A stretch of DNA of 50,862 bases from a bacterium. Its GTDB lineage: Bacteria > Patescibacteriota > Minisyncoccia > Phycocordibacterales > Phycocordibacteraceae. The position numbers were made by a program, and so were the translations under genes. The notes under the pieces were generated by a model. The model worked only from the letters and a program-made list of their open reading frames with translations, was not told where the DNA came from and searched no databases. The stretch covers positions 1 to 50,862 of the forward strand of contig JAHFML010000003.1 in the NCBI GenBank assembly GCA_023269085.1. Direction: 5' to 3'. Each line of letters opens with the position of its first letter. Positions within the stretch are counted from its first letter, which is position 1. This document shows positions 13,200 through 46,612 of this stretch, piece by piece.

Positions 13200-13231
13200 T
13201 TTACCAACCCATCGGGGGGGGGGGCTACTCT
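13200..13231 (+). promoter_or_regulatory. Putative promoter with G11 tract in the spacer (TTTACC-N20-TACTCT)
   Basis: G run 13214-13224; homologous to 29759, 30895 and 46586. Confidence 0.6.
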
Positions 13232-13265
13232 AAAGGCACAATCTTTATAAACATACCCACACACA

Positions 13266-13880
13266 ATGAAAGACCTCATCCGTTCTACAATCAAACTAAC
13301 AGCAGCATCCTCTCTAACCCTCCTAGCTTTCTATGCTATCAATGCTCAAGCACAATCAGCTTGGACTCCTCCCTCGTCAACACCACCAGCAGGCAATGTA
13401 GCAGGACCTCTCACAGTCTCTTCTACAGGTCAGAGCAAAGCAGGCAACCTTATGTTGAATACAGATGGTGCTCTTGCTAATGGTCTTATTGTTGCCGCTG
13501 GCAAGGTTGGTATAGGGACGCTGACTCCTACACAAGCATTGGATGTGAGTGGCAAGATCAGAATGGCAACACAGACCGCCACTGCAGATGCCGCGGATAT
13601 CGTCGCGACGAAGGGGTATGTGGACGGGAAGGTCCCAAATGGAGTTTGCCCAAGCGGTCAGTTTGTGACAGGAATTTCTAATGGAATTATTCAATGTGCT
13701 CCTTCTGGCGGAAACCAAATCGTAGGAGGGTGTGACCAAGCGACTATATTCGGATCGAACTGTTGGGGTGGTGCTGATGGTGGCAGATATGCGAATTGTC
13801 CAACAGGTTCAACTCCTCATATTATGGGCGGTAGTAGTAATGATGGCGCTATATTTACTTATTTCTATTGTACGCGATAG
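13266..13880 (+). CDS. Secreted constant-N/variable-C surface protein, paralog 1 (Cys-rich tip)
   Basis: Signal peptide ...LLAFYAINAQA, constant WTPP..PPAGNVAGPLT...GKVGIG, then ATKGYVD and CPSG/CPTGST modules. Confidence 0.8.
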   Translation: MKDLIRSTIKLTAASSLTLLAFYAINAQAQSAWTPPSSTPPAGNVAGPLTVSSTGQSKAGNLMLNTDGALANGLIVAAGKVGIGTLTPTQALDVSGKIRMATQTATADAADIVATKGYVDGKVPNGVCPSGQFVTGISNGIIQCAPSGGNQIVGGCDQATIFGSNCWGGADGGRYANCPTGSTPHIMGGSSNDGAIFTYFYCTR

Positions 13881-14017
13881 GAAGGGACGTGTAGATAATT
13901 TATACACATCACACCATGAAACCGAACAGCCCGTGATAAAAAATAGTTTACATAGGACTGTCCTATGTTGTTGTAATAATGTCCTCATGAAAAGTCTAAG
14001 CCAGATTTTTATGTCCC

Positions 14018-14080
14018 ACACCAGCATTTATCCATGAAGCACTCCAGTATCGCCCGTGCGGCCTCTTCTGGTTTGAATAA
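14018..14080 (+). repeat. Diverged duplicate of the comM 3' end (right island boundary)
   Basis: Translates [20 protein letters not shown], 18 of 20 aa identical, differences mostly at third codon positions. Confidence 0.85.
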
Positions 14081-14082
14081 AA

Positions 14083-15192
14083 TTATTGCGCGGTGCAGTT
14101 GGTACTCCCGACGACACAGGCACGGAGCGGGTTGGCCGCGCCGCGGACTTCGAAGTGGAGATGCGCGCCGGTCGAGAGTCCTGTCGAGCCGACATAGCCG
14201 ATCACGTCGCCCGAAGAGACGCTCTGCCCCGATGAGACAGCCGTGCGCGTCATATGGCTGTAGAGCGTTTGCGAGCCGTTGTCGTGGGTGATGACGACAT
14301 AGTTGCCGTAGCCGCCGTCCCATGCGCCAGTGCCGCGCGATATGATGACGACACCATCAGCCGCGGCGTGAATCGGTGTGCCGCGCGGCGCCGCGAGATC
14401 AACGGCGTTCCAGCCATGCGTTCCTTGGGTGACGAGCGCACCTGGGATCGGGTCGACATAGTAGCCGGGGAATGAGGCGCCGCCGCCGCCGAGGTATGGC
14501 TCATAGATCTTGCCGGATCTTTTCTTGCTCGATGGCTTCGAGACAGGAGCTTTGGGCGTCACTTCGCCGCCAGGGATGATGATGCTCGTGCCCACCGCAA
14601 GCGCGCCCGCCGTGTCGAGGCCGTTGAACTGCGCAATTTCGCCCGCGTCGGCGTTGTATCTCTTCGCCAGCGATTTGAGCGTGTCGCCCTTCACGACGGT
14701 ATGCTCCGTTCCCGAGACAGGGAGAATAATAAGAGTGTCGCCCACATGAAAATCTTTTGCACTACTCATGTTGTTCGCCCAGATAATAGTGTTTGCGGAA
14801 ACGCCGAACATGTCCGCAATTTCAGAAAGGGTGTCGCCTCGACGCACGACATAGATTGAGATGTGGTCCGATTGCGTCGAGCTCGCGACATCGGCGATGG
14901 TGCCGGCTGGTCCGGTGTGAGCGAGCACGGCATTGTCGCTCGTGGTGAGCGTGTCGCCGATACCCTTGTTCGGGTTCGGGTCGATGTTGGTGGCGGCGGC
15001 GAGCAAGGGTGTTGCCGAACTCGGCATATGTAAAGCGCTCGCCGCATCGGCGTTTGTCGAGAACGGCCAGAATGCGTCTGCCTGGTTGGGTACAGAAATT
15101 GCTGCAACAATGAGCAAAGCAAGTACGGTAGAGAGAGATGGAAGTTTGAAAGTAATGGGAAACGAAGGAAGTCGGCGGGTCAGCAAGTACAA
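14083..15192 (-). CDS. LysM-domain M23-family metallopeptidase
   Basis: Two LysM motifs (YVVRRGDTLSEIA, HTVVKGDTLKSLA) and M23 motifs AVDLAA, GYGNYVVITH, TLYSHM, STGAHLHFEV. Confidence 0.93.
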   Translation of the reverse strand: MYLLTRRLPSFPITFKLPSLSTVLALLIVAAISVPNQADAFWPFSTNADAASALHMPSSATPLLAAATNIDPNPNKGIGDTLTTSDNAVLAHTGPAGTIADVASSTQSDHISIYVVRRGDTLSEIADMFGVSANTIIWANNMSSAKDFHVGDTLIILPVSGTEHTVVKGDTLKSLAKRYNADAGEIAQFNGLDTAGALAVGTSIIIPGGEVTPKAPVSKPSSKKRSGKIYEPYLGGGGASFPGYYVDPIPGALVTQGTHGWNAVDLAAPRGTPIHAAADGVVIISRGTGAWDGGYGNYVVITHDNGSQTLYSHMTRTAVSSGQSVSSGDVIGYVGSTGLSTGAHLHFEVRGAANPLRACVVGSTNCTAQ

Positions 15193-15338
15193 AAGTAGCC
15201 TAAATACGGCGTATATAGGCTACTTCTTGAAATCAGTCATGACAGTCGATACCACCGAGTATAGCCCCGTTAGATTGAGAGTCAACCGGCTCGCGAGATA
15301 GCTGTGGAGAACGCTTTTTGAGGTATATTTCAATAATT

Positions 15339-18338: not shown

Positions 18339-19092
18339 AGCGAAGCAATCTCTTGGGCAGAATTTCTTGATGCACGCGCGGATAGCGGAGCGGATAGCGA
18401 AGACCGCGCCGCTACCGAGCGGCGCGGTGGTGCTCGAGATTGGGCCGGGGACGGGCATGCTCACACGCGAATTGTTGAAAATCGCGAAGAAGGTCATTGC
18501 GGTCGAGGCAGACGGCGAGCTTTTTGAAAAATTGCGAGCCGACTTCGCGGGTGAGATAGCGAGCGGGCAACTCGAACTCCATCATGCCGACATTCGCGCC
18601 TTCGACCTCGCGCCGCTCCCGCGCGGCTACGCGCTCGTCGCGAACATTCCCTATTATCTCACCGGCGAAATCTTCCGCATGTTTCTCGAAGCAGAAAATC
18701 AGCCGAGCTCGATGACGCTTTTGGTACAAAAAGAAGTTGCCGAGCGTATTGTTGGAAATCGCTCGAAGAAAGAGAGCATCCTCTCGCTCTCGGTGAAGGC
18801 GTATGGCACGCCGAAGCTCGAGTTCACCGTCCCGCGCGGCGCCTTCACTCCCGCGCCGAAGGTCGACTCGGCCGTGCTCACGATACGCGAAATTTCGCGA
18901 CGAAATTTCGCGACCCGCGCCGTCGAAGAGCGATTCTTCGCGCTCCTCCACGCCGGCTTCGCGCACAAGCGCAAGTTCGTTCGGAAGAATCTCGCCGAAG
19001 CCGGCCTCCCCGCGGGCGACATCCCCGAGAAGGCGCGCGCCGAAGACCTCCCGCTCGTCGTCTGGCTCGCTCTCGCTCAAGAAGAGAAGTAA
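18325..19092 (+). CDS. rsmA: 16S rRNA adenine dimethyltransferase
   Basis: KQSLGQNFL, LEIGPGTGMLT, VANIPYYLT, QKEVAERI, FTPAPKVDSAV. Confidence 0.95.
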   Translation: MTFIKAKQSLGQNFLMHARIAERIAKTAPLPSGAVVLEIGPGTGMLTRELLKIAKKVIAVEADGELFEKLRADFAGEIASGQLELHHADIRAFDLAPLPRGYALVANIPYYLTGEIFRMFLEAENQPSSMTLLVQKEVAERIVGNRSKKESILSLSVKAYGTPKLEFTVPRGAFTPAPKVDSAVLTIREISRRNFATRAVEERFFALLHAGFAHKRKFVRKNLAEAGLPAGDIPEKARAEDLPLVVWLALAQEEK

Positions 19093-19182
19093 TCCCCACC
19101 CCCTTGCTTTTTTTTGGCGTGTATGGTATAGGGATATCGGATGTGGCATCCTGCCGCATGCTCTTTGACCTAGGAGGTCACC

Positions 19183-19827
19183 ATGAAATCGCTCTATCGT
19201 ATTTCCGCGGTGGCCTTCACCGCACTTGTTCTCTCAGCCCTCACGGGCTGTGCCGGTATCGAGTACATCCCGGCGCTTATGGCAGCTAGTCCAACGGTAC
19301 CGATGGCCACATCACCAGATCCGAGCTTCGGGTCGGGCCTCATTGCGCTCGCCGATAAGGCGGCGGGATATCTGGCCAAGCTTGGGTCCGGCGGTGACAC
19401 CTCGGACGCACCCAAGTCGGAAACGTCGTCACAAACACCGACGCAGGTTGCAGAGGACGGACTCCGTCATTGCCCCGCTCCTCTGGCTACCGTTGCGATT
19501 ACGGCCGACAGTGAGTTGTACGAAGGGAACGGTCCCAAGGACAACTTCAGGAGACTGGCAGTCGAAACGGGTTGTATCTCGATAGGTTCTCCGTCGGGAT
19601 CCGTTCCAACTGTGTACGCGTCGGTTTCGGAGAACCAACCGATGTGGACAATGCGGTTGGAGTACACGGTTGAGTACTCAGCGACGATTGCCGGCCGTAC
19701 TGTGAACGCAACAGGCAAAGCCTCGGGATCTGGCTCGGCCTATGCTTCCTCTGCCAAGAGGGCCGCGGAACAAGCTTTCGCGCGTTTCGTGAACAAGTTG
19801 CAACAGAGTCCTGTCGCCAAGAGATGA
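19183..19827 (+). CDS. Putative lipoprotein with weak CsgG-like segment
   Basis: Lipobox LTGC; strong AGGAGG SD; LRHCPAPLATVAI...TGC reminiscent of CsgG/HfaB-like proteins (weak). Confidence 0.6.
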   Translation: MKSLYRISAVAFTALVLSALTGCAGIEYIPALMAASPTVPMATSPDPSFGSGLIALADKAAGYLAKLGSGGDTSDAPKSETSSQTPTQVAEDGLRHCPAPLATVAITADSELYEGNGPKDNFRRLAVETGCISIGSPSGSVPTVYASVSENQPMWTMRLEYTVEYSATIAGRTVNATGKASGSGSAYASSAKRAAEQAFARFVNKLQQSPVAKR

Positions 19828-19846
19828 CCTTTTCCGTTTCTCAACC

Positions 19847-19872
19847 ACCCCCAGCATTGCGTCTGGGGGTTT
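19847..19872 (+). terminator. Terminator hairpin
   Basis: ACCCCCAG-N8-CTGGGGGT followed by T residues. Confidence 0.5.
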
Positions 19873-19936
19873 ACTTTTATACATGCTGTGCAAAACATAG
19901 TATTGGCAGTGGCGGGTGTTATACTTATCTATAAAT

Positions 19937-20983: not shown

Positions 20984-20984
20984 T

Positions 20985-22961: not shown

Positions 22962-22965
22962 TGTT

Positions 22966-25335: not shown

Positions 25336-25355
25336 TTAGTACTAGGAAATAAAGT

Positions 25356-25913: not shown

Positions 25914-25970
25914 AGCGCAAAAAAGTTGCGTTTATTGCGCCCTTCCTCTATAGTGTCTTTGACCCACTCG

Positions 25971-26415: not shown

Positions 26416-26423
26416 TTTTCATC

Positions 26424-27535: not shown

Positions 27536-29683
<2,148 letters not shown>

Positions 29684-29693
29684 GAAAAAGAGT

Positions 29694-29732
29694 AAAGCAC
29701 GCGGCCGCCCCAAAGGGGCGGCCGCGTGCTTT
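29694..29732 (+). terminator. fusA terminator (duplicated at 30830-30868)
   Basis: AAAGCACGCGGCCGCCCC-aaa-GGGGCGGCCGCGTGCTTT. Confidence 0.85.
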
Positions 29733-29758
29733 CTCATCGCCTATCCCCACCCTCCTCC

Positions 29759-29788
29759 TTTACCCCACCCTCGGGGGGGGGGTACGCT
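29759..29788 (+). promoter_or_regulatory. Putative promoter with G10 tract (TTTACC-N18-TACGCT)
   Basis: G run 29773-29782 directly before a TAnnnT box. Confidence 0.65.
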
Positions 29789-29820
29789 ACAGGTATATCC
29801 ACCGCGCATAACCCACACCC

Positions 29821-30546
29821 ATGAAAGAACTAACTCGTTCAACGCTCGTCACCATCGTCGCCTCTTCTCTCACCCTCCTCGCCTTCTACGCGATCAACGC
29901 TTCTGCACAATCAGCCTGGACTCCAGCTCCAGCTAACGCTCCCTCAGGCAACGTGGCAGGCCCCCTCACCACGGGCGCAACCGGTCAGAGCAAAGCCGGC
30001 AATCTCATGCTCAACACCGACGGCACCCTCGCCAACGGCCTCATCGTCGCGAATGGGAATGTGGGGATTGGGACAATAAACCCTGGTAGCAAGCTTGAGG
30101 TTGTTGATGGAACCCTTGAGGTTGTTGATGGAACCATCAGAAGTGATTTCGTTAATAATGCGCGTGGGAATACATTGACTCTTAACGGAGGGAAATCAAA
30201 TTTCCAAGTGTGGCATAATAGTGAGAAGTTTGTTAATTTGCTGAATACATCAGGGGATGGAAATGGTGCTGGATTTAAATTCCTTGATTACGACGGTAGT
30301 AGCGGCGGTGCATTGAACGTCGACACTTTGCCAGCGAGTATGGTCATAACGAATGCTGGTAAAGTCGGCATTGGGACGCCGAATCCAGCGGCTATGCTTG
30401 AGGTGAATGGAGAGTTCCGTCTCGGCGCCAATGCTAAAGCAGGAACGGTCTGTAACCTCGAAGGGAAAGTCTCTTTCGATTACAACTTGCATGCTCCCGT
30501 ATACTGCAACAATATCGGCGTGTGGACCGCTCTAGCCCATAATTAA
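29821..30546 (+). CDS. Secreted constant-N/variable-C surface protein, paralog 2
   Basis: Constant N-terminus to GNVGIG; second GKVGIGTPNP repeat; C-terminal C..EG...YCN...W module. Confidence 0.82.
   Translation: MKELTRSTLVTIVASSLTLLAFYAINASAQSAWTPAPANAPSGNVAGPLTTGATGQSKAGNLMLNTDGTLANGLIVANGNVGIGTINPGSKLEVVDGTLEVVDGTIRSDFVNNARGNTLTLNGGKSNFQVWHNSEKFVNLLNTSGDGNGAGFKFLDYDGSSGGALNVDTLPASMVITNAGKVGIGTPNPAAMLEVNGEFRLGANAKAGTVCNLEGKVSFDYNLHAPVYCNNIGVWTALAHN
30094..30135 (+). repeat. Perfect in-frame 21-bp tandem duplication (LEVVDGT x2)
   Basis: CTTGAGGTTGTTGATGGAACC twice. Confidence 0.9.
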
Positions 30547-30621
30547 CTGTTAGTGAAAGCACCCGCACAATCGGTGGTCGTGACGCGGAGCGCGCTGTGC
30601 ATACCTGGTTTGCACAAAACG

Positions 30622-30819
30622 CCCGGCAAGAGCTCGAAGACGATGAAATAGGTTGCTCGTGCTCTCGGTGAGAATGGCGTTGTCGACACAGAGTTTGCCG
30701 AGAAGCGGCTGGTAGAGATGGCGGGATACCGCAATCGTCTGGTCCACTTCTACGATGATATAACCGCGCGCGAGTTGTACCGTATCGTGGTGAATGATAT
30801 CATCGCGAGTAGGAAGTAA
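30622..30819 (+). pseudogene. DUF86/HepT-type HEPN RNase fragment fused to the duplicated fusA tail
   Basis: PGKSSKTMK*VARALGENGVVDTEFAEKRLVEMAGYRNRLVHFYDDITARELYRIVVN-DIIASRK*; RNxxxHxY motif; TAG at 30649-30651. Confidence 0.78.
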
Positions 30820-31210
30820 GAAAAAGAGTAAAGCATGCGGCCGCCCCAAAGGGGCGGCCGCGTGCTTTCTCATCGCCTATCCCCACCCTCCTCCTTTACC
30901 TCCCCCTCGGGGGGGGGGTACGCTACAGGTATATCCACCGCGCATAACCCACACCCATGAAAGAACTAACTCGTTCAACGCTCGTCACCATCGTCGCCTC
31001 TTCTCTCACCCTCCTCGCCTTCTACGCGATCAACGCACAAGCACAATCAGCCTGGACTCCAGCTCCAGCTAACGCTCCCTCAGGCAACGTGGCAGGCCCC
31101 CTCACCACGGGCGCAACCGGTCAGAGCAAAGCCGGCAACCTTATGCTCAACACCGATGGCACCCTCGCCAACGGTCTCATCGTTGCGAATGGGAATGTGG
31201 GGATTGGGAC
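30796..31210 (+). repeat. 415-bp direct repeat, copy B
   Basis: Matches 29660-30074. Confidence 0.95.
30895..30924 (+). promoter_or_regulatory. Putative promoter with G10 tract (TTTACC-N18-TACGCT)
   Basis: G run 30909-30918. Confidence 0.65.
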
Positions 31211-31646
31211 GCTTACTCCTAACACAACTAAAGGCACTAGCGGCTACCTTGACGCCAAAGACGTCTATCTCCGTGACGCCGGGAAGTGGGCGAGTGAGGT
31301 TGGGGGGGGCGGAAGTAGTGGTGCCGCGAAGGTATGGGCAAATTTTGAAGGCACTAATTGTAGTGGAGCCAACGGATGCATAATACGAGCACAGTATGGT
31401 GTGTCTAAGATTCTAAAGACTGGATCTGGAATCTACAGAGTCTATTTTACTACTCCGATGCCAGACACAAATTATGTAACAATTGGTGTTAACAACGGGC
31501 CAGGATGTCAGTGGTCTATTGGTGGTGTGGCTGCAGATTATTCTAATAAGACAGTGGATTCAGTAACTATTAGGACTCCTAATTATGATGCGTGTACTTT
31601 CAACACTATAGACCGATACGATGTTGAGTTCGTTATATTTAGATAG
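30957..31646 (+). CDS. Secreted constant-N/variable-C surface protein, paralog 3 (phage-tail-fibre-like tip)
   Basis: Constant N-terminus; DAKDVYLRDAGKWAS neck; AKVWANFEG...GVSKILKTGSGIYRVYFTTPMPDTNY tip. Confidence 0.82.
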   Translation: MKELTRSTLVTIVASSLTLLAFYAINAQAQSAWTPAPANAPSGNVAGPLTTGATGQSKAGNLMLNTDGTLANGLIVANGNVGIGTLTPNTTKGTSGYLDAKDVYLRDAGKWASEVGGGGSSGAAKVWANFEGTNCSGANGCIIRAQYGVSKILKTGSGIYRVYFTTPMPDTNYVTIGVNNGPGCQWSIGGVAADYSNKTVDSVTIRTPNYDACTFNTIDRYDVEFVIFR

Positions 31647-33950: not shown

Positions 33951-33955
33951 GCGGC

Positions 33956-35212: not shown

Positions 35213-35216
35213 ACCT

Positions 35217-35924: not shown

Positions 35925-35952
35925 AGAGCCATAACAATAACTTATGCACGGT

Positions 35953-36438: not shown

Positions 36439-36459
36439 TTCCAACGCACCATAAGACGA

Positions 36460-36491
36460 AACAAAAACAGCCCGCATGGGCTGTTTTTGTT
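36460..36491. terminator. Terminator hairpin
   Basis: AACAAAAACAGCCC-gcat-GGGCTGTTTTTGTT. Confidence 0.75.
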
Positions 36492-36514
36492 GTTTGTGAT
36501 ATTCTGCTCTTATT

Positions 36515-36606
36515 GGAGACGTGGCTGAGTGGTCGAAAGCACCTCACTGCTAACGAGGCAGGGACGTTAAACTCCCTCGTGGGTTCAAATCCCACCGTCT
36601 CCGCCA
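36515..36606 (+). tRNA. tRNA-Ser(GCT)
   Basis: Acceptor GGAGACG/CGTCTCC then G-CCA; D-arm GCTGAGTGGTCGAAAGC; anticodon loop CT-GCT-AA (36549-36551); long variable arm; GGTTCAAATCC T-arm. Confidence 0.95.
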
Positions 36607-38100
36607 AAATTCAAAATCGGAATTGGAAGCCGAAATGGGGTCGCGCCGTAGGCGCGACACAAACGCATTCCCGCCAAAAATTCCTGAATCCAAAAGGTTT
36701 TTCCACGCTCCGCGTGGTTCAAAAAAGACGGTTCGATCCTTAATTTGAAAGTTCGAACCGACTTTTTGAAGTAAACGGATTTTTTCTCCGTTTACTTCCT
36801 CGTTTGCCAATTCCACATTGTATTTCAAAAACTTTTCGGTAAGTTCGAACCGATTATTCGCTTTTTGCTCAAAAGCCGATAATTTCTCTTTGAGAAGCTG
36901 TTTTTGATTAACTAGCGTGCTTTTAGCGCCCCGATATTCCTCTAGCGAAAGTGCGCTCTCTAAATAAGCATTCATCAGCTTCTCAATTTTAGAATCCAAA
37001 AGAGAAATTTCGGCTTTTGTGTTGTCTGCAAAAAGCGTAGACGACTGGATTTCTGATTGCCGATCTTTTGCGTTTTCGGCAATCATCCATTTAGCCCAAT
37101 CGTCTGGCAAAGAAACTTTTTTGATTTCCTTATTGATTTCGGAAGTGATGATTTCCTCGCGAGTATATTTTTGCGAACAAGGATTTTTCCGTTTGGTACA
37201 TCGCAAATAATTATGACCTTTCTGTGTCTCGGTAGTGATGAAGCAACCACACTCTCCGCAACGGAAAAATCCTCTGTACAAAAATGGTTTCAGTCCGCGA
37301 GATTTCGGCTTACTTTTTCGCATCATCACTTCCTGAACGGAATCAAAAAGTTTCTTTGAAATAATCGGTTCGTGCTTTCCCTCAAAAATCTCTCCGTTGT
37401 ACAACATCAATCCTGTATAGATAGGATTTTTGAGAAGTTTTTGATAATTCGACACCGCAAGTTCCTTTCCGCTTTTTCGCTTCAATCCAAGCCCATTAAA
37501 TTTGTCGCGGAGTTCCCGCAAAGTGAAGTTTCCGGTGGAATATGCCTCAAATGTTTTGCGAATAAGTGGAGCAAGTTCGGGGTCTGGCACAATACGCTTG
37601 TTTTTGTTCACATAGCCCAATGGCGACATTTGAGGCCATATACCTTCCTTCACTTTGTTTCTATGTCCACGCTTAATATTCTCCGACAAATTGTCCACAT
37701 AATACTTGGATTGCGAAAAGGCGATTGAGAGCATGAATTTGCCTTGCGGTGTCGGATCAAACCAAAAAGTTGGGAATTTCATTTCAGAAATTACACCAGT
37801 ATCAACGAGGTAGATGATCTTTCCTCCATCTACCGAGTTGCGAGCAAGTCTATCGGGATGCCACGCCAAAATACCAGTGGCTTCACCTTTTTCCATTCGC
37901 TCTATCATTTCATTAAACACGGGACGACCTGGTATTTTGGCGGTCTGCTTCTCGACAAAGACATCAACCACATCAAGCTGTTCTTTCAACGCTAACTCTT
38001 TTAATTCACTTAGTTGGTCAGCAATACTGCGGACTTGTCTGTCTTTGTCATCCGTAGACTTGCGAGTATATATGAAAAACTTTTTGGTTTGATTATTCAT
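36550..38100 (-). CDS. Large serine recombinase (resolvase, recombinase and Zn-ribbon domains), C-terminus read antisense through tRNA-Ser
   Basis: IYTRKSTDD..QVRSI..Q, WHPDRLARN, PLGY, LKNPIYTG, HEPIIS, CGECG...YLRC; start at MNNQTKK. Confidence 0.92.
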   Translation of the reverse strand: MNNQTKKFFIYTRKSTDDKDRQVRSIADQLSELKELALKEQLDVVDVFVEKQTAKIPGRPVFNEMIERMEKGEATGILAWHPDRLARNSVDGGKIIYLVDTGVISEMKFPTFWFDPTPQGKFMLSIAFSQSKYYVDNLSENIKRGHRNKVKEGIWPQMSPLGYVNKNKRIVPDPELAPLIRKTFEAYSTGNFTLRELRDKFNGLGLKRKSGKELAVSNYQKLLKNPIYTGLMLYNGEIFEGKHEPIISKKLFDSVQEVMMRKSKPKSRGLKPFLYRGFFRCGECGCFITTETQKGHNYLRCTKRKNPCSQKYTREEIITSEINKEIKKVSLPDDWAKWMIAENAKDRQSEIQSSTLFADNTKAEISLLDSKIEKLMNAYLESALSLEEYRGAKSTLVNQKQLLKEKLSAFEQKANNRFELTEKFLKYNVELANEEVNGEKIRLLQKVGSNFQIKDRTVFFEPRGAWKNLLDSGIFGGNAFVSRLRRDPISASNSDFEFWRRRWDLNPRGSLTSLPR

Positions 38101-38121
38101 AGAATTGTATTGGCAAACGAG

Positions 38122-38242
38122 TGAACCACGCGGAGCGTGGAAAAACCTTTTGGATTCAGGAATTTTTGGCGGGAATGCGTTTGTGTCGCGCCTACGGCGC
38201 GACCCCATTTCGGCTTCCAATTCCGATTTTGAATTTTGGCGG
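38122..38242. repeat. 121-bp inverted copy of 36601-36721 (left att arm / integrase 3' region)
   Basis: Exact reverse complement by inspection. Confidence 0.93.
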
Positions 38243-38441
38243 TGTGTATTGGACAAAGTTCGAATGTATTTCGGACAAAATCCGCAGGATTTTGACTAAT
38301 AATCTTTGCGCCTCGCACGCTCCCTTCGGTCGCAATCCCAAAACCAAAAATTTCCTTACTTTTCCTTCTTCGGCGGGGGGTGTGGGGGGAGCCGGCAAAA
38401 AATGGAAAGGAAAATTTTTGGTTTTGGTTCCGACGCTTCAT
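38236..38441. repeat. 206-bp inverted copy of 44106-44311 (right att arm)
   Basis: Reverse complement with one mismatch seen (KFSF versus KFSL in the ORF track); overlaps the previous repeat at the CCGCCAA core. Confidence 0.93.
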
Positions 38442-38533
38442 AATCCAATTATTCACACTTGTATTATAACTTATCATTGAGTCAAAACACAAGAGAATGC
38501 TATAATATCCGTGTTGATAAGTTTTCATACAAT

Positions 38534-38743
38534 ATGGCAAAATCCACAGCACAAAAATTTGGCGAAAATATGAAAAAAATTCGCCTTGAAAAAAGCATGT
38601 CGCAAGGCGATATTTGCCGAGAGTTAGGTTTAGATAGAGCGTATATAAGCAATGTTGAGAACGGCAAACAAAACCTTACAATCAGTACAATGGAAAAGGT
38701 CGCCAAAGCGTTGGGAGTTAGCATAGATCAACTTTTAAAATAG
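38534..38743 (+). CDS. XRE-family HTH regulator (RM controller C-protein-like)
   Basis: FGENMKKIRLEKSMSQ...DRAYISNVENGKQNLTI..MEKVAKAL. Confidence 0.9.
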   Translation: MAKSTAQKFGENMKKIRLEKSMSQGDICRELGLDRAYISNVENGKQNLTISTMEKVAKALGVSIDQLLK

Positions 38744-38745
38744 TT

Positions 38746-40419
38746 ATGAGCAAGCTTAAAGACATGCCAAATGTAGACCGCCCGCGAGAAAAATTTCTTG
38801 CGAAAGGTGCCGATGCTTTAACCAAAAGCGAACTTTTGGCGATTTTACTGGGAAGTGGAATAAAAGGCACAAATGTTAAAGAACTTTCGCAAAAAATTCT
38901 GCGAAAATTTGGGAATGGCTTTTTGCATGCAACCGTTGACGAGTTAGTACAAATTCCAGGAATCGGAAAGGCGAAAGCGTTGCAAATTGTTTCTGCGCTC
39001 GCCTTGGCTCGCAGAATACAGGAGGAGCAAAACAGTCCCGATAATCTTATTTTGTCCGCCAAAGACGCATTGTCATTGGTTTCGGACTTGAAAGACGCAA
39101 AAAGAGAAAACCTCGTCTGTTTGTACTTGAATGCACGAAATGCGTTACTTAAAAAAGAAATTGTTTCAGTCGGCACATTGGACAAGAGTTTGATACATCC
39201 GCGAGAAATTTTTGCACCAGGTCTTGAAGCACACGCAGCAGGGGTCATTCTTGTTCACAATCATCCGTCTGGGGATCCAAGCCCGAGCGAACAAGACAAA
39301 CAAGTTGCAAAAAGAATTATTGATGCAGGACAGTTAATGGGTATAAATGTTATAGATTTTCTTATCATCGCAAAAAACGGCTCCCATAGCGTTTTGGGAG
39401 AATTACAAAATACGGAACTAACTAATACGGAATATGTTGCAGAAGGTATTCAATCTTCACTTTTTGATTTAATGGTAGACGCAAACCAAGCATATTTTTA
39501 CGGCGTAAATAATAAGGTTCCAGAAAACAAAGGCAAAAAGGACGCTTTGAAGTTTATAGATCTTTTTGCTGGAATCGGTGGCTTTCATGTCGCCTTTCAT
39601 AATGCTGGCAGTGAGTGTGTTTTTGTCTCCGAATGGGACGAACCTGCACAACAAACCTATAAACATAACTTTTTCAAGCTATCGCCAGAGGTATTTCGCT
39701 CGGGAAATTTTGTCGGCGATATAACGAAAATCAAACCGAATGATATACCCGATTTTGATATTTTGACTGGAGGTTTTCCTTGTCAGCCATTCTCGCAAGC
39801 TGGCTTTAAAAAAGGATTTAACGAAACTCGTGGAACTTTATTTTTCGATATTGTTAAAATTTTAAAAGAAAAAAAGCCCCGTGCTTTTTTTCTGGAAAAT
39901 GTCCGCGGTTTATATAATCATGATAATGGTAAGACGTTTGAAACCATAAAAAGAGTCATAACGGAAGAACTGGGATATTCTTTCTTCCAAAAAATTGTAA
40001 AAGCTTCTGATTTTGGCTTACCGCAACACAGACCCCGCTTGTTTATGGTTGGATTCAGAGATAAATCCATTAACTTCAAATTTCCCGAACCTGTCAAAGA
40101 ACTCAAATATACAATGTCGGATATATTCGGCGGAAAATGCGATAAAGAGGTCGGCTTCACATTGCGTGTTGGTGGACGAGGGAGCAAGATAACTGACAGA
40201 AGAAATTGGGACGCATATCGAGTAAACGGAAAAATCGTACAACTTGGACCAAAGGAAGGGTTAAAAATGCAAGGGTTCCCAGATTGGTTTGAATTTCCGC
40301 AAGGCATTTCCAGCGTCCAGTCCATGAAGCAATTGGGTAATTCCGTCGCTATTCCCGCAATACAGGCTGTTGCTGAAAAAATAATTGAAACATTGAATGA
40401 ATATGATCAAAGAAAATAA
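38746..40419 (+). CDS. RadC (HhH plus JAB) fused to a C5 DNA cytosine methyltransferase
   Basis: RPREKF..KGADAL...ELLAILL, HPREIF, HNHPSGD; then DLFAGIGGF, GGFPCQPFS, ENVRGL, PQHRPR, KQLGNSV. Confidence 0.92.
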   Translation: MSKLKDMPNVDRPREKFLAKGADALTKSELLAILLGSGIKGTNVKELSQKILRKFGNGFLHATVDELVQIPGIGKAKALQIVSALALARRIQEEQNSPDNLILSAKDALSLVSDLKDAKRENLVCLYLNARNALLKKEIVSVGTLDKSLIHPREIFAPGLEAHAAGVILVHNHPSGDPSPSEQDKQVAKRIIDAGQLMGINVIDFLIIAKNGSHSVLGELQNTELTNTEYVAEGIQSSLFDLMVDANQAYFYGVNNKVPENKGKKDALKFIDLFAGIGGFHVAFHNAGSECVFVSEWDEPAQQTYKHNFFKLSPEVFRSGNFVGDITKIKPNDIPDFDILTGGFPCQPFSQAGFKKGFNETRGTLFFDIVKILKEKKPRAFFLENVRGLYNHDNGKTFETIKRVITEELGYSFFQKIVKASDFGLPQHRPRLFMVGFRDKSINFKFPEPVKELKYTMSDIFGGKCDKEVGFTLRVGGRGSKITDRRNWDAYRVNGKIVQLGPKEGLKMQGFPDWFEFPQGISSVQSMKQLGNSVAIPAIQAVAEKIIETLNEYDQRK

Positions 40420-41491
40420 CAAAGGAGAATGGTCGGAATTTTACGCTTTCCTTAAAATTCTTGAGGATAGAAAACTTTTTGCAGCGGACAAAAATCTTGA
40501 AATAATAGATGGAAAGTTTTTCGTATTTCACAAAATATTCAGAGACGAGAAAGACGAACCCGTTAAAATTTATGATCTTTCACAATCGGACACGCAAGTA
40601 ATAATCACCGACGAAGCAGGAAGAACCATTAAAGAGTTTGACTCCTCCGTTTTGAAAGAAAAGACATTGAAAATTTTTGAACGAATCAGAGATGAAAAAA
40701 GTCGATCATTCACAATTCCAGAAGCGTGCGAGCTCATGGAGGAATTGCTTTGCACAAAAGTAAAAGCAAGTAGTAGTGAAAAAGCTGATCTTGTTGCGAT
40801 TATCTATGATCGGATTTCTAAAACAGCACCGATGCTCGGATTCTCCATAAAATCTATGATCGGAGGAGCATCCACATTGCTTAATCCTGGTAAAACTACA
40901 AACTTTGTTTTTGAAATAAAAGGTTTTACAGGCAATGTGGATGAAGTGAATGCCATAGAAACAAATGCTCAAATTCGTGATCGTGTTAAAAAAATATCGG
41001 AACAAAACGGAGTTTTTGATTTTGTAGGGGTGTCCAATGAACAGTTTTCCTCGAACATGAAAATGATTGATACGGCATTGCCAGAGTTTATCGCATCAAT
41101 GCTTTTGGATTTTTTCTCAAACAGTCGGAAAACAGTTGCGGATCTGGCAGGTGCTCTTTCGGAAGATGCAAAAATAACCACAAAGTACGGACTATCTCTC
41201 ACAAACTACGAATATAAAATCAAAAACTTTTTGGACGCGGTCGCGCTTGGTATGGTGCCAAGCAAACCCTGGGACGGTTTTGCTAAAGCACATGGTGGGT
41301 ATATTGTCGTAAAAGAAAATGGCGATGTGGTTTGTTATCACTTATACAATCGTGATGAATTTCGAGCATATTTATACGAAAACACGAAGTTTGACGCGGC
41401 AAGCACAACTCGTTATGAATACGGCAAGCTATACGAGAAAAATGGAAAGCTGTTTTTTAACCTCAACCTGCAAATTAGATTTTTGAAATAG
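40397..41491 (+). CDS. Type II restriction endonuclease, HpaII-like family
   Basis: NKGEWSE N-terminus, KAD...GFSIKS..G...TLLN, GMVPSKPWDG...GGYIVVK, LNLQIRF; overlaps the MTase stop. Confidence 0.8.
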   Translation: MNMIKENNKGEWSEFYAFLKILEDRKLFAADKNLEIIDGKFFVFHKIFRDEKDEPVKIYDLSQSDTQVIITDEAGRTIKEFDSSVLKEKTLKIFERIRDEKSRSFTIPEACELMEELLCTKVKASSSEKADLVAIIYDRISKTAPMLGFSIKSMIGGASTLLNPGKTTNFVFEIKGFTGNVDEVNAIETNAQIRDRVKKISEQNGVFDFVGVSNEQFSSNMKMIDTALPEFIASMLLDFFSNSRKTVADLAGALSEDAKITTKYGLSLTNYEYKIKNFLDAVALGMVPSKPWDGFAKAHGGYIVVKENGDVVCYHLYNRDEFRAYLYENTKFDAASTTRYEYGKLYEKNGKLFFNLNLQIRFLK

Positions 41492-41507
41492 AGAGAACAT
41501 TTAAACT

Positions 41508-42926
41508 ATGAAAAATAAATTTATAAAAAAGGATATTTCGATAAAAGGCTTGTCTCTTTGGGATGAAAATGCACGTTTCCCAGATAAATATTTTAGTAAG
41601 ACAGAGAAGGAGCTTATTGGTTATTTTGTATCCAAAAAGGATTTTAAGATAAATGAATTTTCTGAAGAAGTTGTAAAGGAGTTTGATTTGCCGCAACTAG
41701 AAAAATTGGTTGTATATGAGTTTAATGGCAAAAAAATAGTTTTGGAGGGCAACCGTCGTCTTGCGGTTTATAAACTTTTAAATGATCCAAAATTAACTGA
41801 CGATACGAAACTGCAAGGCAAGCTTACTGGTTTAAGATCGAAGATAAAAATTGACGATAATTTTAAGCTAGAGTGTTTGATTTCTAAAGACAAGGAGCAG
41901 GGTCTGCGGTATATAAACAGGAAACACTTGCGAGGCAATAACGAAGTTTCTTGGGGTGATAATGAGAGAGCTCATCATAATGCACGTGGAGGGAATGCAA
42001 ATCAAAAAGAACTCCTGAAAGTTGCAATTACTAAAGTCATCAAAGATCTTGAACTTCCAGAACAATTGAAGGAACAAGTATTGGGACATGGTTTTGTAAC
42101 TACCCTTTGGAGGTTAGTTGAACAAAAGCCAGCGTGGTCTGCCTTTGGATTTTCACTTGATAAAAGCGGAGAACTAAAAATCACAGACAAAGATTTTAAG
42201 GACAAGCTAAAAGTTATTATTTTTGATGTTCTGCAAAAGGGTAAGTATAACGGAAAGCTATTTTCGCGTTTAAATGTAAAAGACATCGAAGGTTATTTGG
42301 GAGGAATTACAAAAGAAGATTATAAAAGAGTTTCTGATGACATAAAGAAACAAACCAAGACAGATCTTTTTGGCAAGGAATCAACTATCATTGCTTCATC
42401 AGGAAACAATGGAAACCGAAGTAATCCAAAATCATCACTTCGTGATTATTTAATTCCAAAAACGTGTGTATTTCAAATTCACGAAACAAAGATCAATAAT
42501 ATTTACTGCGAACTTAAAAATGACCTTTTGATTGATGACTCGAAAAAGGCTGTGCCAAATGCCGTCGGGGTATTATTTAGGGTTTTCTTAGAAATATCCT
42601 TGGATCACTATGCAAAAATGAATAGTCATGGATTTAAAAAGACAGATACAATTAATCAAAAAATTTCTTGGGTCGTCAAAAGTTTAGAGGGCAAGAAATA
42701 TGATAAAAAGAAGTTTAACAATATAAACAAAGTTGGTTCTGCAACAGGCACAAAAAGTTATTTATCAATAGAAAATTTCCATGAATATGTTCATTCTGTA
42801 ACAACACAGCCAACATCGAGTGAATTGAAGGGAAAATGGGACAACCTGCAAGGATTTTTTGAAATCCTATGGGGAGATTTGAATAAAAAAGCAAAATCTA
42901 AAAAACAATATGCAAAAAAGAAATAG
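41508..42926 (+). CDS. ParB/Srx-like N-terminal plus HEPN-like C-terminal protein
   Basis: ENARF...VLEGNRRLAVYKLL (ParB-like); NAVGVLFRVFLE...FHEYVH (HEPN-like). Confidence 0.62.
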   Translation: MKNKFIKKDISIKGLSLWDENARFPDKYFSKTEKELIGYFVSKKDFKINEFSEEVVKEFDLPQLEKLVVYEFNGKKIVLEGNRRLAVYKLLNDPKLTDDTKLQGKLTGLRSKIKIDDNFKLECLISKDKEQGLRYINRKHLRGNNEVSWGDNERAHHNARGGNANQKELLKVAITKVIKDLELPEQLKEQVLGHGFVTTLWRLVEQKPAWSAFGFSLDKSGELKITDKDFKDKLKVIIFDVLQKGKYNGKLFSRLNVKDIEGYLGGITKEDYKRVSDDIKKQTKTDLFGKESTIIASSGNNGNRSNPKSSLRDYLIPKTCVFQIHETKINNIYCELKNDLLIDDSKKAVPNAVGVLFRVFLEISLDHYAKMNSHGFKKTDTINQKISWVVKSLEGKKYDKKKFNNINKVGSATGTKSYLSIENFHEYVHSVTTQPTSSELKGKWDNLQGFFEILWGDLNKKAKSKKQYAKKK

Positions 42927-43776
42927 AAAAAAAATATCGGGTTTCTCTAGCCCCTTGCGTTATCCAGGCGGGAAAACTCGACTTGCCAATAAACTACTTG
43001 AGGCAATGGAGAAAAACTTTGACCAAAAAGAAAAAGTGGTTTTGGTGGAGCCATATGCTGGTGGAGCGGGGGCTTCACTTGCTCTGCTTTTTGCCAAAAA
43101 AGTTGAAAGAATTGTTATCAATGATCTTGATAAGGCTATTTTTACTTTCTGGAAAATAGCTGTGTCTGATACTGACTATTTAATAAATAAAATAAAACGA
43201 ACAGAAGTTACTATTGAGGAATGGAGAAGGCAAAAAGCAATATACATTTCAACAAAAGACGAACGAAAACTTGCATTTGCGACTCTGTTTTTAAATAGAA
43301 CAAACCGTTCTGGGATTATGAGAGGTGGACCAATAGGCGGATTTGATCAATCTGGAACATGGAAAGTGAATGCTCGATTTACTAAAAAAACAATCATTGA
43401 TCGTCTAGAAAAAGTAAAAGAATTCCGTAATAAAATTGAGGTAAGTAATCTGGACGGAGTAGCATTGTTAAAAAGATTGGAAAAACGCAATAGTGAGAAT
43501 CAATATTTTATATTTCTTGACCCGCCATATTTTCAAAAAGGACAATCTTTATACCTAAACCATTACAACAATGAGGATCATGAAAATCTGTCAGAATTCT
43601 TGAGAAAATCATCTTTCAAAAAATGGGTTATGACTTATGATGATGTGCCGTATATTAAAAACTTGTATGCAACAATGCGTACTAAGGGGTTTGCAATTCA
43701 GCATAATGCATACGAATCCAAAATAGGCAGAGAGGTTATGATTTTTCCAAAAGGGTTTACCCCTGTGAATATTTAA
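42910..43776 (+). CDS. Dam/D12-class DNA adenine methyltransferase
   Basis: SPLRYPGGK, EPYAGGAG, INDLD, FLNRTNRSG, FLDPPY, WVMTYD. Confidence 0.92.
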   Translation: MQKRNRKKISGFSSPLRYPGGKTRLANKLLEAMEKNFDQKEKVVLVEPYAGGAGASLALLFAKKVERIVINDLDKAIFTFWKIAVSDTDYLINKIKRTEVTIEEWRRQKAIYISTKDERKLAFATLFLNRTNRSGIMRGGPIGGFDQSGTWKVNARFTKKTIIDRLEKVKEFRNKIEVSNLDGVALLKRLEKRNSENQYFIFLDPPYFQKGQSLYLNHYNNEDHENLSEFLRKSSFKKWVMTYDDVPYIKNLYATMRTKGFAIQHNAYESKIGREVMIFPKGFTPVNI

Positions 43777-44318
43777 GGGAGCCGTCCGCGTTAGCGGATG
43801 GGCTTTGTGCGCGCACTGGGAGGGTGGGGCAAGCACATATAAAATTGTTTGTGCCTCACACAATCCGCCTTTCAGAGTTACCACAGACTCAAACGAAGTC
43901 ACAGAGCGAACACGAAGCAACGCCGAGCAGGCATCGTGAGCGAATGCGAACGGCCTATGCGAGGTGGTGCGAAGTGTGAGCGGACTCTCGAATTACCACA
44001 AAACGCGGATATGGGAGCGCCTCGCACCGACGCGAATGACGGAAGAAAGGACGGACAAAATACTGCCACAATGCTAAAATATAAATACAAGTCCTTTCTG
44101 GAGGAATGAAGCGTCGGAACCAAAACCAAAAATTTTCCCTTCCATTTTTTGCCGGCTCCCCCCACACCCCCCGCCGAAGAAGGAAAAGTAAGGAAATTTT
44201 TGGTTTTGGGATTGCGACCGAAGGGAGCGTGCGAGGCGCAAAGATTATTAGTCAAAATCCTGCGGATTTTGTCCGAAATACATTCGAACTTTGTCCAATA
44301 CACACCGCCAATATATTT

Positions 44319-44981
44319 CTAGTGCGCCAAAGCGAGAGGAATAATCTGTGTCGCGCCCGCGGCGCGGAGCGCGTCGATGGCGGCTTGGAGCGTCGCGCCG
44401 GTGGTGAGGACGTCGTCGATGACGAAGTAGGTGCGGGCGGGGTCGAACGGATGCGCGGCGTCTTCTGCAACGCGAAAGGCGCCGCGCATGTTCTCTTCGC
44501 GTTCTCTCCGCGGGAGCGACACCTGCGAGGCGGTCTCGCGCGTGCGGACGAGCAGGGAAGGCTCAAGGGCGAATCCCTGAACATCGTGCAACGCCCCCCG
44601 TATTACTTCTTCGACCTGATTGAAGCCGCGCTCACGCCGTCGCGCCGCGCCGAGCGGTATCGGCACGATCGAGACAAGGTTCGACCTTAGCCCAGAATTC
44701 TCAAGGTCGAACCTTGTCTCGTCGAACTCGGCCTCGCGAAGATACTCGGCGAGCGCGAGCGCGAGGAGCGCCTGTGCGCGCGCCGAGCCGTGATACTTCG
44801 CTTCGTGTATCGCCGAACGCACGAGTGGCTCCTGGAAGGGGAGAAGAACGACCGTGCCCGGCCGCGTGCAGGGCGCGAGGCGCGGTGCAATGAGAGAGAG
44901 GAAGTCGTCATCAGAAATGGCACGAAGTGATTCTTCATCACTGCGCGGGGGGAAGAGCATGTCCATGAGGCGTCGCAACAT
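44319..44981 (-). CDS. comF: ComF-family phosphoribosyltransferase-like competence protein
   Basis: IHEAKY, IVPIPL...RERGFNQ, IDDVLTTGATL. Confidence 0.9.
   Translation of the reverse strand: MLRRLMDMLFPPRSDEESLRAISDDDFLSLIAPRLAPCTRPGTVVLLPFQEPLVRSAIHEAKYHGSARAQALLALALAEYLREAEFDETRFDLENSGLRSNLVSIVPIPLGAARRRERGFNQVEEVIRGALHDVQGFALEPSLLVRTRETASQVSLPRREREENMRGAFRVAEDAAHPFDPARTYFVIDDVLTTGATLQAAIDALRAAGATQIIPLALAH
44670..44721. repeat. 19-bp perfect inverted repeat inside the comF coding sequence
   Basis: CGAGACAAGGTTCGACCTT-N14-AAGGTCGAACCTTGTCTCG. Confidence 0.9.
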
Positions 44982-44995
44982 GGTACTATTTTCGC

Positions 44996-46078
44996 ATGTC
45001 GTTCTTCGATTCGCTATTTACGAAAAAAGAAGGAAGCGTGCTCGGCGTCGACATCGGGTCGTCGTCGCTCAAGGTCGTCCAGCTGCGCCGCGAGAAAGGG
45101 CAGGCCGTGCTTGAGACCTATGGCGAGCTCGCGCTCGGGCCGTATGCGGGCGTCCAAGTCGGACAGGCGACGAATCTCTCGGCAGAGCAGATCGCCGAGA
45201 CGCTCAAAGATCTCCTGCGCGAGGCGAAGGTGACGACGACCAACTGCGGCGTCTCGATTCCCTTCGCGCGGTCGCTCCTCTCTCTCGTGCGTCTGCCCTA
45301 TCGCAAGAGCCAGCAGGAACAGCAGACGATTATCGAGCTCGAAGCGCGCAAATATATACCCGTGCCAGTGAGCGAGGTCCAGCTCGACTGGTTCGTCGTG
45401 CCGAAGATGGAGCTCGGCGGGAGGGAAGATGAGAGAGAAAAGGATACCGTCGAGGTGCTGATCGTCGCGGTCCACAATGACGAGCTCGCGCTACTGCAGA
45501 GCGTCATGGCGGGCGCCAGTCTCGCGGCGACCTTCTACGAGATCGAGATCTTCAGCACTATTCGCGCGGTCGTCGATGAACCGGTCAAGCCGGTGATGAT
45601 CCTCGACCTCGGCGCCGCCTCGACGAAGGTCTACATCGTCGAACACGGCGTCGTCGCGCTCTCGCACTCGATCGGCACCGGCAGTCAAGACATCACGCGC
45701 GCGATTGCCGTCTCCTCGGACGTCTCACTCGCTCGCGCCGAAGCGCTCAAGAAGGAGCGCGGGCTCCTACGCGACAGCGTCTCGAGCAAGAATTCAGAAG
45801 TCATATTCTCGAACATCTTTTCCGAAGCGCGCCGTGCCATGGTGCAATATGAGACGCTTCATAAGCGGGCGGTCAGCTCTATCATGCTTACCGGCGGCGG
45901 CGGCGTGACCAAGGAGTTGAGCGCGTATGCGAAGCAGACATTCTCGATCGATGTGCGCGTAGCGAACCCGTTCGCGAAGACGGCCGCACCGGCCTTCATG
46001 CGCCCAGTGCTCGAAGAGATAGGGCCAGAGTTCGCCGTCGCCGTCGGCCTCGCCCTCCGCAAGCTTGAGGAAGAATGA
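44996..46078 (+). CDS. pilM: Type IV pilus assembly protein PilM
   Basis: LGVDIGSSSLKVVQL, EARKYIP...VQLDW, ILDLGAAST, LTGGG, NPF, FAVAVGLALR. Confidence 0.92.
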   Translation: MSFFDSLFTKKEGSVLGVDIGSSSLKVVQLRREKGQAVLETYGELALGPYAGVQVGQATNLSAEQIAETLKDLLREAKVTTTNCGVSIPFARSLLSLVRLPYRKSQQEQQTIIELEARKYIPVPVSEVQLDWFVVPKMELGGREDEREKDTVEVLIVAVHNDELALLQSVMAGASLAATFYEIEIFSTIRAVVDEPVKPVMILDLGAASTKVYIVEHGVVALSHSIGTGSQDITRAIAVSSDVSLARAEALKKERGLLRDSVSSKNSEVIFSNIFSEARRAMVQYETLHKRAVSSIMLTGGGGVTKELSAYAKQTFSIDVRVANPFAKTAAPAFMRPVLEEIGPEFAVAVGLALRKLEEE

Positions 46079-46104
46079 TAGCCGCAACATGCTAGAATGA
46101 CGCT

Positions 46105-46566
46105 ATGAAGAAGGAGATGGAAAAAACAACGAAACAAGAACCGACTATTTCGGATGTTATGAGAGTCGTGGGCGGTTTGACGGGGGAAGTAGGCAGTCTC
46201 ACGGGAAGAGTAGATAGTCTCACCGGCACCGTAGAGAATCTCACCGGGAAGGTAGACAGTCTTGCCGAATCTTTACAAGATCTGACCGAAGCTGTGCAGA
46301 CTGGCTTCGCTAGACACGAGGAGATACTTGTTGGACATGGAGAAGTGCTTGCTAAGCATGACCAACTTCTGAAAGCCTTGGTCGAAGGGCAGAACAACCT
46401 CACCGAACGAGTCGGCGATATTGATCGACGGCTCATCGCTACGCAGAATCGCGTTGAAGATATCGCGGACATGTTCGAGAGCACGACCGATGTTGTCGAC
46501 GAAAGCCGCGACCAGATCTTCGGTCATGAAGTGCGCATCACGCGGCTTGAAGGAGTAGCAGTATAA
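46105..46566 (+). CDS. Heptad-repeat coiled-coil hypothetical protein
   Basis: LTGxVxS heptads (21-nt DNA periodicity); ends HEVRITRLE; paralog of 48403-48822. Confidence 0.72.
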   Translation: MKKEMEKTTKQEPTISDVMRVVGGLTGEVGSLTGRVDSLTGTVENLTGKVDSLAESLQDLTEAVQTGFARHEEILVGHGEVLAKHDQLLKALVEGQNNLTERVGDIDRRLIATQNRVEDIADMFESTTDVVDESRDQIFGHEVRITRLEGVAV

Positions 46567-46585
46567 GTTATACACAATGATTTCC

Positions 46586-46612
46586 TTTACTCTACCCTCG
46601 GGGGGGTACGCT
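46586..46612 (+). promoter_or_regulatory. Putative promoter with G7 tract (TTTACT-N15-TACGCT)
   Basis: G run 46600-46606. Confidence 0.62.

Follow-up and report, generated by a model that had tools for sequence, protein, structure and literature searches.

We analyzed a 50,862-nucleotide (nt) stretch of a patescibacterial genome, referred to here as the window, in which four genes of one paralogous family of likely exported proteins each follow an uninterrupted poly-G tract. The tract ends at, or in one window copy one base before, a hexamer that resembles the -10 element of the organism's own promoters, and it begins 8 nt downstream of a conserved TTTAC(C/T) box. Two further members of the family elsewhere in the genome carry the same motif, and G run and hexamer recur in similar layout at the reverse transcriptase (RT) genes of diversity-generating retroelements (DGRs). 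Taken as a whole, the system is probably one of transcriptional phase variation, a known kind in a new lineage. The window corresponds to C9:1-50862, and the genome comprises 710,721 bp in 14 contigs with about 56% G+C.

The consensus at all four window sites is TTTAC(C/T)-N8-Gn-(C)-TAC(G/T)CT, in which the eight C-rich bases end in TC. The elements are placed as follows, the spacer being the distance from box to hexamer.

13200..13205, forward strand: TTTACC box of site 1, before paralog 1; an upstream element whose identity as a -35 is not established; the N8 between TTTACC and G11 is aacccatc
13214..13224, forward strand: G11 tract of site 1, spacer 20
13226..13231, forward strand: TACTCT of site 1, a -10-like hexamer (TAnnnT), separated from the tract by one C
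29759..29764, forward strand: TTTACC box of site 2, before paralog 2; the N8 between TTTACC and G10 is ccaccctc
29773..29782, forward strand: G10 tract of site 2, spacer 18
29783..29788, forward strand: TACGCT of site 2, -10-like hexamer; by eye, the sole TAnnnT from the preceding hairpin to the ATG
30895..30900, forward strand: TTTACC box of site 3, before paralog 3; the N8 between TTTACC and G10 is tccccctc
30909..30918, forward strand: G10 tract of site 3, spacer 18
30919..30924, forward strand: TACGCT of site 3, -10-like hexamer
46586..46591, forward strand: TTTACT box of site 4, before paralog 4; the N8 between TTTACT and G7 is ctaccctc
46600..46606, forward strand: G7 tract of site 4, spacer 15
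46607..46612, forward strand: TACGCT of site 4, -10-like hexamer; an in-frame TAG downstream makes the tract non-coding

The first-pass annotation had described this motif before four paralogs, with tract and spacer lengths of G11/20, G10/18, G10/18 and G7/15, and all of these are present. Read by eye, a TAA or TAG closes the frame of the gene between tract and ATG at each of the four sites. Thus, the window tracts are non-coding and are not frameshift switches, and none of these four promoter tracts has the intragenic position that marks translational phase variation.

We lean, by a small measure, towards transcriptional phase variation in which slippage shifts the distance and phase between TTTACC and the hexamer, with each paralog switching alone. 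Six of the seven family genes would each be driven by a weak promoter, in which a hypermutable poly-G lies directly 5' of the -10 hexamer (TACGCT or TACTCT) and the conserved TTTAC(C/T) box, 8 nt further 5', would serve as a -35-like element or an activator site. Replication slippage would alter the tract by one G per step, each step would alter both the distance and the helical phase between box and -10 hexamer, and transcription of each paralog would go on, down or off independently and heritably. From the sequence we infer the start site, the role of TTTACC, the switching within populations and the effect on expression.

Long G/C runs are rare in this genome. There are 13 runs of at least 7 in all 710,721 bp, and 7 runs of at least 10 compared with 0.038 expected by extrapolation from the decay of run lengths (338 runs of 5, 53 of 6). 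The 13 runs are distributed over six paralog promoters, two paralog coding regions, two junctions between the avd and RT genes of DGRs, one membrane-protein gene and two positions near contig ends. The promoter tracts are G7, G10, G10, G11, G11 and G13, with spacers of 15, 18, 18, 19, 20 and 21 nt. A scan of the genome for the motif, which the first-pass annotation had called for, returned six occurrences, each before a paralog. Its count of four paralogs with the motif holds for the window, whereas a tblastn search of the whole genome with the conserved 88-residue N-terminus identified seven family members, six with the motif and one, at C5:116568, without a tract. The runs that accompany the window promoters in this count are given below.

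C9:93271: promoter tract outside the window, G13, spacer 21
C5:33483: promoter tract outside the window, G11, spacer 19
31302..31309, forward strand: G8 run in the coding region of paralog 3 (a Gly run)
47399..47405, forward strand: G7 run in the coding region of paralog 4
C2:180116: coding G8 run (C8 on the forward strand) inside the membrane-protein gene

The G8 (31302) and G7 (47399) coding runs may act as extra frameshift switches of the variable C-terminal parts of the proteins. The two runs near contig ends are a C8 run at C10:5-12, with 4 nt of contig C10 before it, and a run of nine C at C9:148559-148567, 40 nt past a 552-residue gene near the end of contig C9.

Tract length changes faster than the flanks, since copies with identical flanks differ by 3-4 G. 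The leaders of the G7 and G11 copies are identical at 47/47 positions, and the flanks of the G10 and G13 copies at 16/16 and 37/38. Matches to the MutS_V and DNA_mis_repair (MutL) domains were absent from this genome, which is scored 100% complete, while the controls were positive in 11 of 14 genomes.

We derived the promoter grammar of the organism from the sequence 5' of its tRNA genes and of the 379 genes that have 40 nt or more of intergenic DNA, with statistics that rest on our own crude calls of 731 open reading frames (ORFs). The recurrent signal is an extended -10, TGnTAnnnT, found at 88 sites 5' of genes and in many cases 5-9 nt before the ATG. There are eighty strict leaderless cases (TGnTAnnnT, 6-8 nt, ATG), and thus leaderless mRNAs appear to be common in this genome. 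TAC(G/T)CT fits TAnnnT and is the sole such hexamer common to all six copies; a strict leaderless promoter with the identical hexamer, TGATACGCT, stands 7 nt before the ATG at C2:189608. The G run supplies G at -14/-13 of the TGn position, but not T at -15. Further upstream, the TTTAC(C/T) box lies exactly 8 nt from the tract in 6/6 copies. The 16 nt 5' of the tract are identical at 11-16/16 positions in all 15 copy pairs, compared with 7-23/44 over the next 44 nt between upstream classes, which bears out an earlier remark that the motif is kept amid unrelated intergenic DNA. The fixed 8-nt distance and the conserved 16-nt block make a conserved upstream element 5' of the tract likely.

Two other long tracts of the genome lie before RT genes outside the window, and the first of them is likewise followed by a TAnnnT hexamer.

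C9:72224-72235: G12 tract between a divergent bAvd-like gene and the RT gene RT1
C9:108379-108388: G10 tract between a divergent bAvd-like gene and an RT gene

Both tracts sit in DGRs, with an RT gene, an Avd-like gene and template repeat/variable repeat (TR/VR) pairs. The RT genes match RVT_1 (E 3e-24 and 4e-25), and the bAvd-like ORF of about 120 residues on the opposite strand matches with E 1e-9 (39.3 bits, cut-off 40) and 8e-4. The TR/VR pairs are 109-112 bp long and their mismatches fall at TR adenines in 19/20, 12/13 and 13/17 cases. The second DGR also has a remote second target on another contig, C2:178587-178962, with 89.6% identity over 376 bp to the local target; in the VR of this remote target 13/17 mismatches are at TR adenines.

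RT1 has the leaderless layout G12-TACGTT-7 nt-ATG. We surveyed 80 RT loci from named Patescibacteria assemblies (Kaiserbacteria, Paceibacteria, Yanofskybacteria and others), 74 of which have at least 110 nt of upstream sequence. A G run of at least 6 occurs within about 110 nt before the RT start in 65-66 of the 74, depending on two slightly different windows, most commonly as G9-G11 and mostly within G8-G11, against a background of 0.008 per window in the same loci. Among the loci without a G run, (GT)n occupies the same place in four, (CTGG)n in one and (GGCGGCT)n in one, and the lengths of the repeat units at avd-RT junctions are in no case divisible by three. Of the 66 loci with a tract, 17 have TAnnnT directly after it, with an in-frame ATG 7 nt further on (9 nt in one); two further loci have, by eye, GTG at equal spacing. 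This layout indicates that the hexamer would be a leaderless -10 with the G run in its spacer region, and by comparison of these loci it shows Gn-TAnnnT to be a real, recurrent promoter design in the phylum. It supports, along with the TGnTAnnnT form of the genome's own promoters, TAC(G/T)CT as the -10 of the paralogs. To judge from the loci compared, both the type and the length of the repeat at the avd-RT position shift as they do in contingency loci, and the repeat may act as a heritable on/off switch of DGR mutagenesis.

Two other readings of the RT loci were discarded. TGG(C/T)AA before the RT tracts, considered as a -35 at 14-21 bp, corresponds to N-terminal codons of the divergent avd gene (LPV; LLPVLE..K.AY). 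A frameshift model with an upstream ATG, for RT type B, does no better than chance, that ATG being in frame at only about one locus in four.

Several results weigh against our preferred reading, in which the tract sets the distance between box and hexamer. At the promoter level, a -35 signal is absent from the 80 strict promoters, whichever spacer between 12 and 23 is tried. TTTACC has an intergenic enrichment of 2.15 against an AT-driven baseline of about 2.1, and GGGTAnnnT, with an intergenic ratio of 2.09, is not enriched. A consensus scan of 29500-31100 returned no sigma-70-type sites, because TACGCT agrees with TATAAT at only 3/6 positions. The first-pass placement of the tract between a -35 and a -10 is therefore half sustained: the -10-like hexamer fits the promoters of the organism, while TTTACC as a -35 finds no backing in the 80 promoters or the consensus scan. 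Upstream -10-like sequences, taken up with the transcribed-leader explanation below, and the results on variation and conservation that follow it, fall on the same side. The assignment of 18 nt as ON and of 15 and 20 nt as OFF was borrowed from E. coli; by an E. coli-like optimum, the tandem pair (18, 18) would at most be near it.

Promoter phase variation may also proceed without any -35/-10 spacing, the tract acting beside the -10 or setting the distance of an activator at TTTACC. We regard this as unlikely, if far from negligible. The promoters of this genome work without a recognizable -35, the tract gives G at -14/-13 where the consensus is TGn, and at the RT loci the tract directly adjoins the -10, the upstream "box" being avd coding sequence in that case. 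In Treponema pallidum, poly-G beside the -10 and start site modulates tprE, tprG, tprJ and tprL, and for tprL a porA-like spacing mechanism is reported to have been ruled out (PMC7864442). A pure -10-proximal effect would, however, not require a box fixed at 8 nt from the tract in 6/6 copies, and for the activator variant there is no known regulator or binding site.

The tract might instead lie in a transcribed 5' untranslated region (UTR), with its length acting on mRNA structure, stability, translation or RNA-polymerase slippage, which we consider improbable. Three features of the window bear on it.

13180..13188, forward strand: TGATACTGT, a full extended -10 match, 26 nt 5' of tract 1 and overlapping the Fic stop codon
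29694..29732, no strand applicable: terminator-like hairpin of 18 bp after the EF-G gene, just 5' of the promoter block
30830..30868, no strand applicable: second copy of this hairpin, inside the tandem duplication of paralogs 2 and 3

TGATACTGT is a possible upstream promoter that would place tract 1 in a 5' UTR. The 46600 and C5:33483 copies share an upstream TA(A/G)(G/C)TT-ATACACA, of the form TAnnnT-ATACACA, and in each of these cases the tract could be transcribed. Cassettes directly 3' of the EF-G gene, the L2 gene and pilM offer a source of read-through, and base pairing between C-rich block and G run would yield -17 to -21 kcal/mol. This RNA hairpin was rejected as a candidate, since it folds no better than dinucleotide shuffles (z -0.06 to -1.6). 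Three copies have a strong hairpin terminator with no TAnnnT between hairpin and box, and the Gn-TAnnnT-7 nt-ATG loci show the layout to be a non-transcribed one at RT genes. An Rfam scan of the window found one tRNA only, and no family matches the tract regions.

Variation in the sequenced populations and conservation among relatives do not speak for a spacing switch either. A search of sequencing runs located the stretch in four groundwater runs of one study, which we compared as Logan contigs, and no RNA runs holding the stretch turned up. At site 4, contigs of runs X1 and X2 span the G7 tract with no other letters and no gaps. In X2, one contig has a GGG insertion behind 30908 at a depth of 11.8 of 64.7. 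We rejected this as a population length variant because it is most simply the G13 paralog at C9:93271, which has identical flanks. A contig joint 30912>46600 is explained by the paralogs at C9:93271 and C5:33483 sharing flanks. Runs X3 and X4 contain only small, diverged parts of the stretch.

None of 15 homologue loci in related genomes has a G/C run of at least 7 in the promoter-tract position; the sole run in these loci is a G8 in genome G014 (L004 and L014, which are one contig), well away from the next gene start. The tract is also absent from all 16 metagenome loci, which show 37-80% identity over their best segment, the high values being short and the best near-full-length match 53%. 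A protein search added one 65%-identical protein on a 2.3-kb contig, and neither search brought up a close strain. The motif occurs in 0/400 other genomes of the order and six times here, and in the sequences compared it is lineage-specific before the exported-protein family. As the six copies descend from duplications, their co-occurrence represents one or few events and not six.

These observations raise the question of whether the G run had a single origin, spread as the cassette was duplicated and varies in length as a neutral hotspot with no regulatory role. The relation of all six copies by duplication, the confinement of the motif to one species among those searched and the seventh paralog without a tract are all in keeping with this. 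Neutral homopolymers should, however, decay by interruption, whereas 6/6 tracts are unbroken at G7-G13, the most diverged copy included; the 16-nt block and the hexamer have been kept amid flanks that have not; and independent G runs occupy the same promoter position at most DGR RT loci, far above the expected count. We therefore give neutral drift little credence, as a quite improbable explanation.

G runs of at least 9 are found in 35/60 other genomes of the genus. Of 29 loci sampled, one per genome, 12 are RT-linked by our own reading. In L026, L027, L039 and L046 the tracts stand before or within genes whose products are signal-peptide or membrane proteins; L046 reads TTGACG-4 nt-G9-3 nt-TACGGT, with a 16-bp spacer and a good -35. 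In L029 the tract is 165 nt before an ORF whose N-terminus is, by eye, restriction-enzyme-like. Equivalent tracts in dozens of independent assemblies from different projects also bear on whether the tracts could have been produced by sequencing or assembly error, such as the poly-G of two-color chemistry. Contig C10 begins 4 nt from its C8 run and the poly-C of one foreign locus, L149, is implausibly long, as such an artefact could produce. The tracts here are internal with unique flanks on both sides, and contigs of two runs agree at the G7 site, so that an artefact is scarcely conceivable.

The genes behind the window promoters, and the one family member that lacks the tract, are listed next.

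13266..13880, forward strand: paralog 1, 204 residues, with a signal-like helix at the N-terminus and AQA|QS as its site
29821..30546, forward strand: paralog 2, 241 residues
30957..31646, forward strand: paralog 3, 229 residues
46654..47550, forward strand: paralog 4, 298 residues, 3' of pilM and a coiled-coil ORF
C5:116568-117431: paralog 7, with no poly-G promoter, 38 nt past the preceding ORF's stop codon and with the proximal leader ataacccataccc-ATG only

Residues 1-88 are common to the paralogs, while the C-terminal parts differ and contain cysteines. The shared N-terminus has a basic start, a hydrophobic helix and an A-x-A|QS site, resembling a Sec-type signal, and the most diverged motif-bearing copy retains 75% amino-acid identity over it. 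Export of the proteins is likely on these sequence features; their display on the surface and their function we infer. The earlier description of the family as surface proteins is accordingly upheld as far as the signal-like helix and A-x-A|QS site favor export. No Pfam family matches the proteins, the ESM Atlas gave only matches below 0.9, and the database relatives are few and unnamed. We used AlphaFold to model paralog 4 from a 17-row alignment, and the prediction is confident only for helix 2-31 (mean predicted local distance difference test score 59.8, predicted template modeling score 0.29). The copy at C5:116568 may be constitutively co-transcribed.

The 5' neighbors of the cassettes are a Fic gene (paralog 1), the EF-G gene (paralogs 2 and 3) and pilM with a coiled-coil ORF (paralog 4), and outside the window one cassette follows the gene for ribosomal protein L2, apparently in L4-L23-L2 order. 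From these positions, it seems that cassettes insert downstream of operons with high expression. Paralogs 2 and 3 are a tandem duplication, the unit of which spans the last codons of EF-G, the hairpin and the promoter (29650-29790 and 30790-30925).

Elsewhere in the window, a low-GC island (36-47% G+C) at about 36500-44000 adjoins tRNA-Ser (36515-36603). It encodes a serine recombinase, a RadC/C5 cytosine methylase fusion, an HpaII-type restriction endonuclease and a D12 adenine methylase, and looks like an integrated mobile restriction-modification island.

The organism belongs to the candidate phyla radiation (CPR), to judge by the named relatives of one of its genes. CPR bacteria are believed to spend their lives on host cells and possess very few regulators, and little has been described of how they vary their surface. 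If our reading is right, switching of the paralogs would let a population vary its attachment or phage-receptor proteins while costing the genome almost nothing. The repeat at the avd-RT junction is perhaps more important than the paralog switches, as it suggests that DGR mutagenesis is switched heritably. Targeted hypermutation would then itself be phase-variable, and the result would be two-tier bet-hedging in which the mutator is switched first and a ligand-binding protein is diversified afterwards. We propose tentatively, as a possibility and not yet an expectation, that contingency loci are a general regulatory device of those Patescibacteria that have few regulators and no mismatch repair, of which paralog poly-G tracts and phase-variable DGRs are two forms. 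In the literature we found no description of homopolymer promoter switches in CPR, in line with the first-pass annotation, and none of repeats at DGR avd-RT junctions, although an earlier mention of either may exist.

Comparison with known systems indicates which parts of this design are familiar. In Bordetella fim2/fim3 (poly-C) and Mycoplasma hyorhinis vlp (poly-A), paralogous surface genes each have their own promoter homopolymer and switch independently, and in the Bordetella fim promoters the distance between an activator site and the -10 is set by the tract. These systems differ from the one described here in base and in phylum, and in having known regulators, whereas none is known here. 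Haemophilus influenzae hifA/hifB, in which (TA)n in a divergent promoter controls fimbrial genes, is the analogue of the avd-RT junction, with a simple repeat in a short region between divergent genes; unlike at hifA/hifB, the controlled genes at the junction would be the mutagenesis machinery. For CPR bacteria, one report describes intragenic tripeptide repeat arrays of a Gracilibacterium and not promoter tracts (PMC6851277).

The precedent named by the first-pass annotation, spacer switching of the Neisseria porA type, is a known one. Transcriptional phase variation is described for the porA poly-G and the opc poly-C (PMC7864442), and fetA has a poly-C between -10 and -35 (PMC5320596). As in porA, fetA and opc, the paralogs studied here would have a homopolymer in the promoter spacer of a putative outer-surface gene. 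Slippage in Neisseria acts around a 17-bp optimum between a recognizable -35 and -10, in contrast to the unproven -35 and the poor TATAAT match of the -10 in our case.

The closest match, the tpr paralogs of Treponema pallidum, had been missed. According to PMC7864442, tprE, tprG and tprJ are permissive with eight or fewer Gs, the poly-G of tp0126 lies between -35 and -10 with an optimum of 17 bp, and the start site of tprL is 4 nt past its tract. As in our reading of the present family, paralogous putative surface proteins each have a non-coding promoter poly-G of differing length, in a small, host-dependent genome. The tract lies between -35 and -10 in tp0126 and abuts the -10 and start site in tprL, and in the present family it abuts TAC(G/T)CT. 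The Treponema proteins are unrelated to those described here, which have no Pfam match, and the promoters here are of the extended -10, leaderless type. Our evidence is from sequence, whereas length variation within isolates, start sites and reporter effects were measured in Treponema. The tpr/tp0126 tracts, like that of Neisseria porA, are experimentally shown switches (PMC7864442). Thus, the Treponema and Neisseria precedents establish this kind of system as already known, and the paralogs described here would place it in a new lineage.

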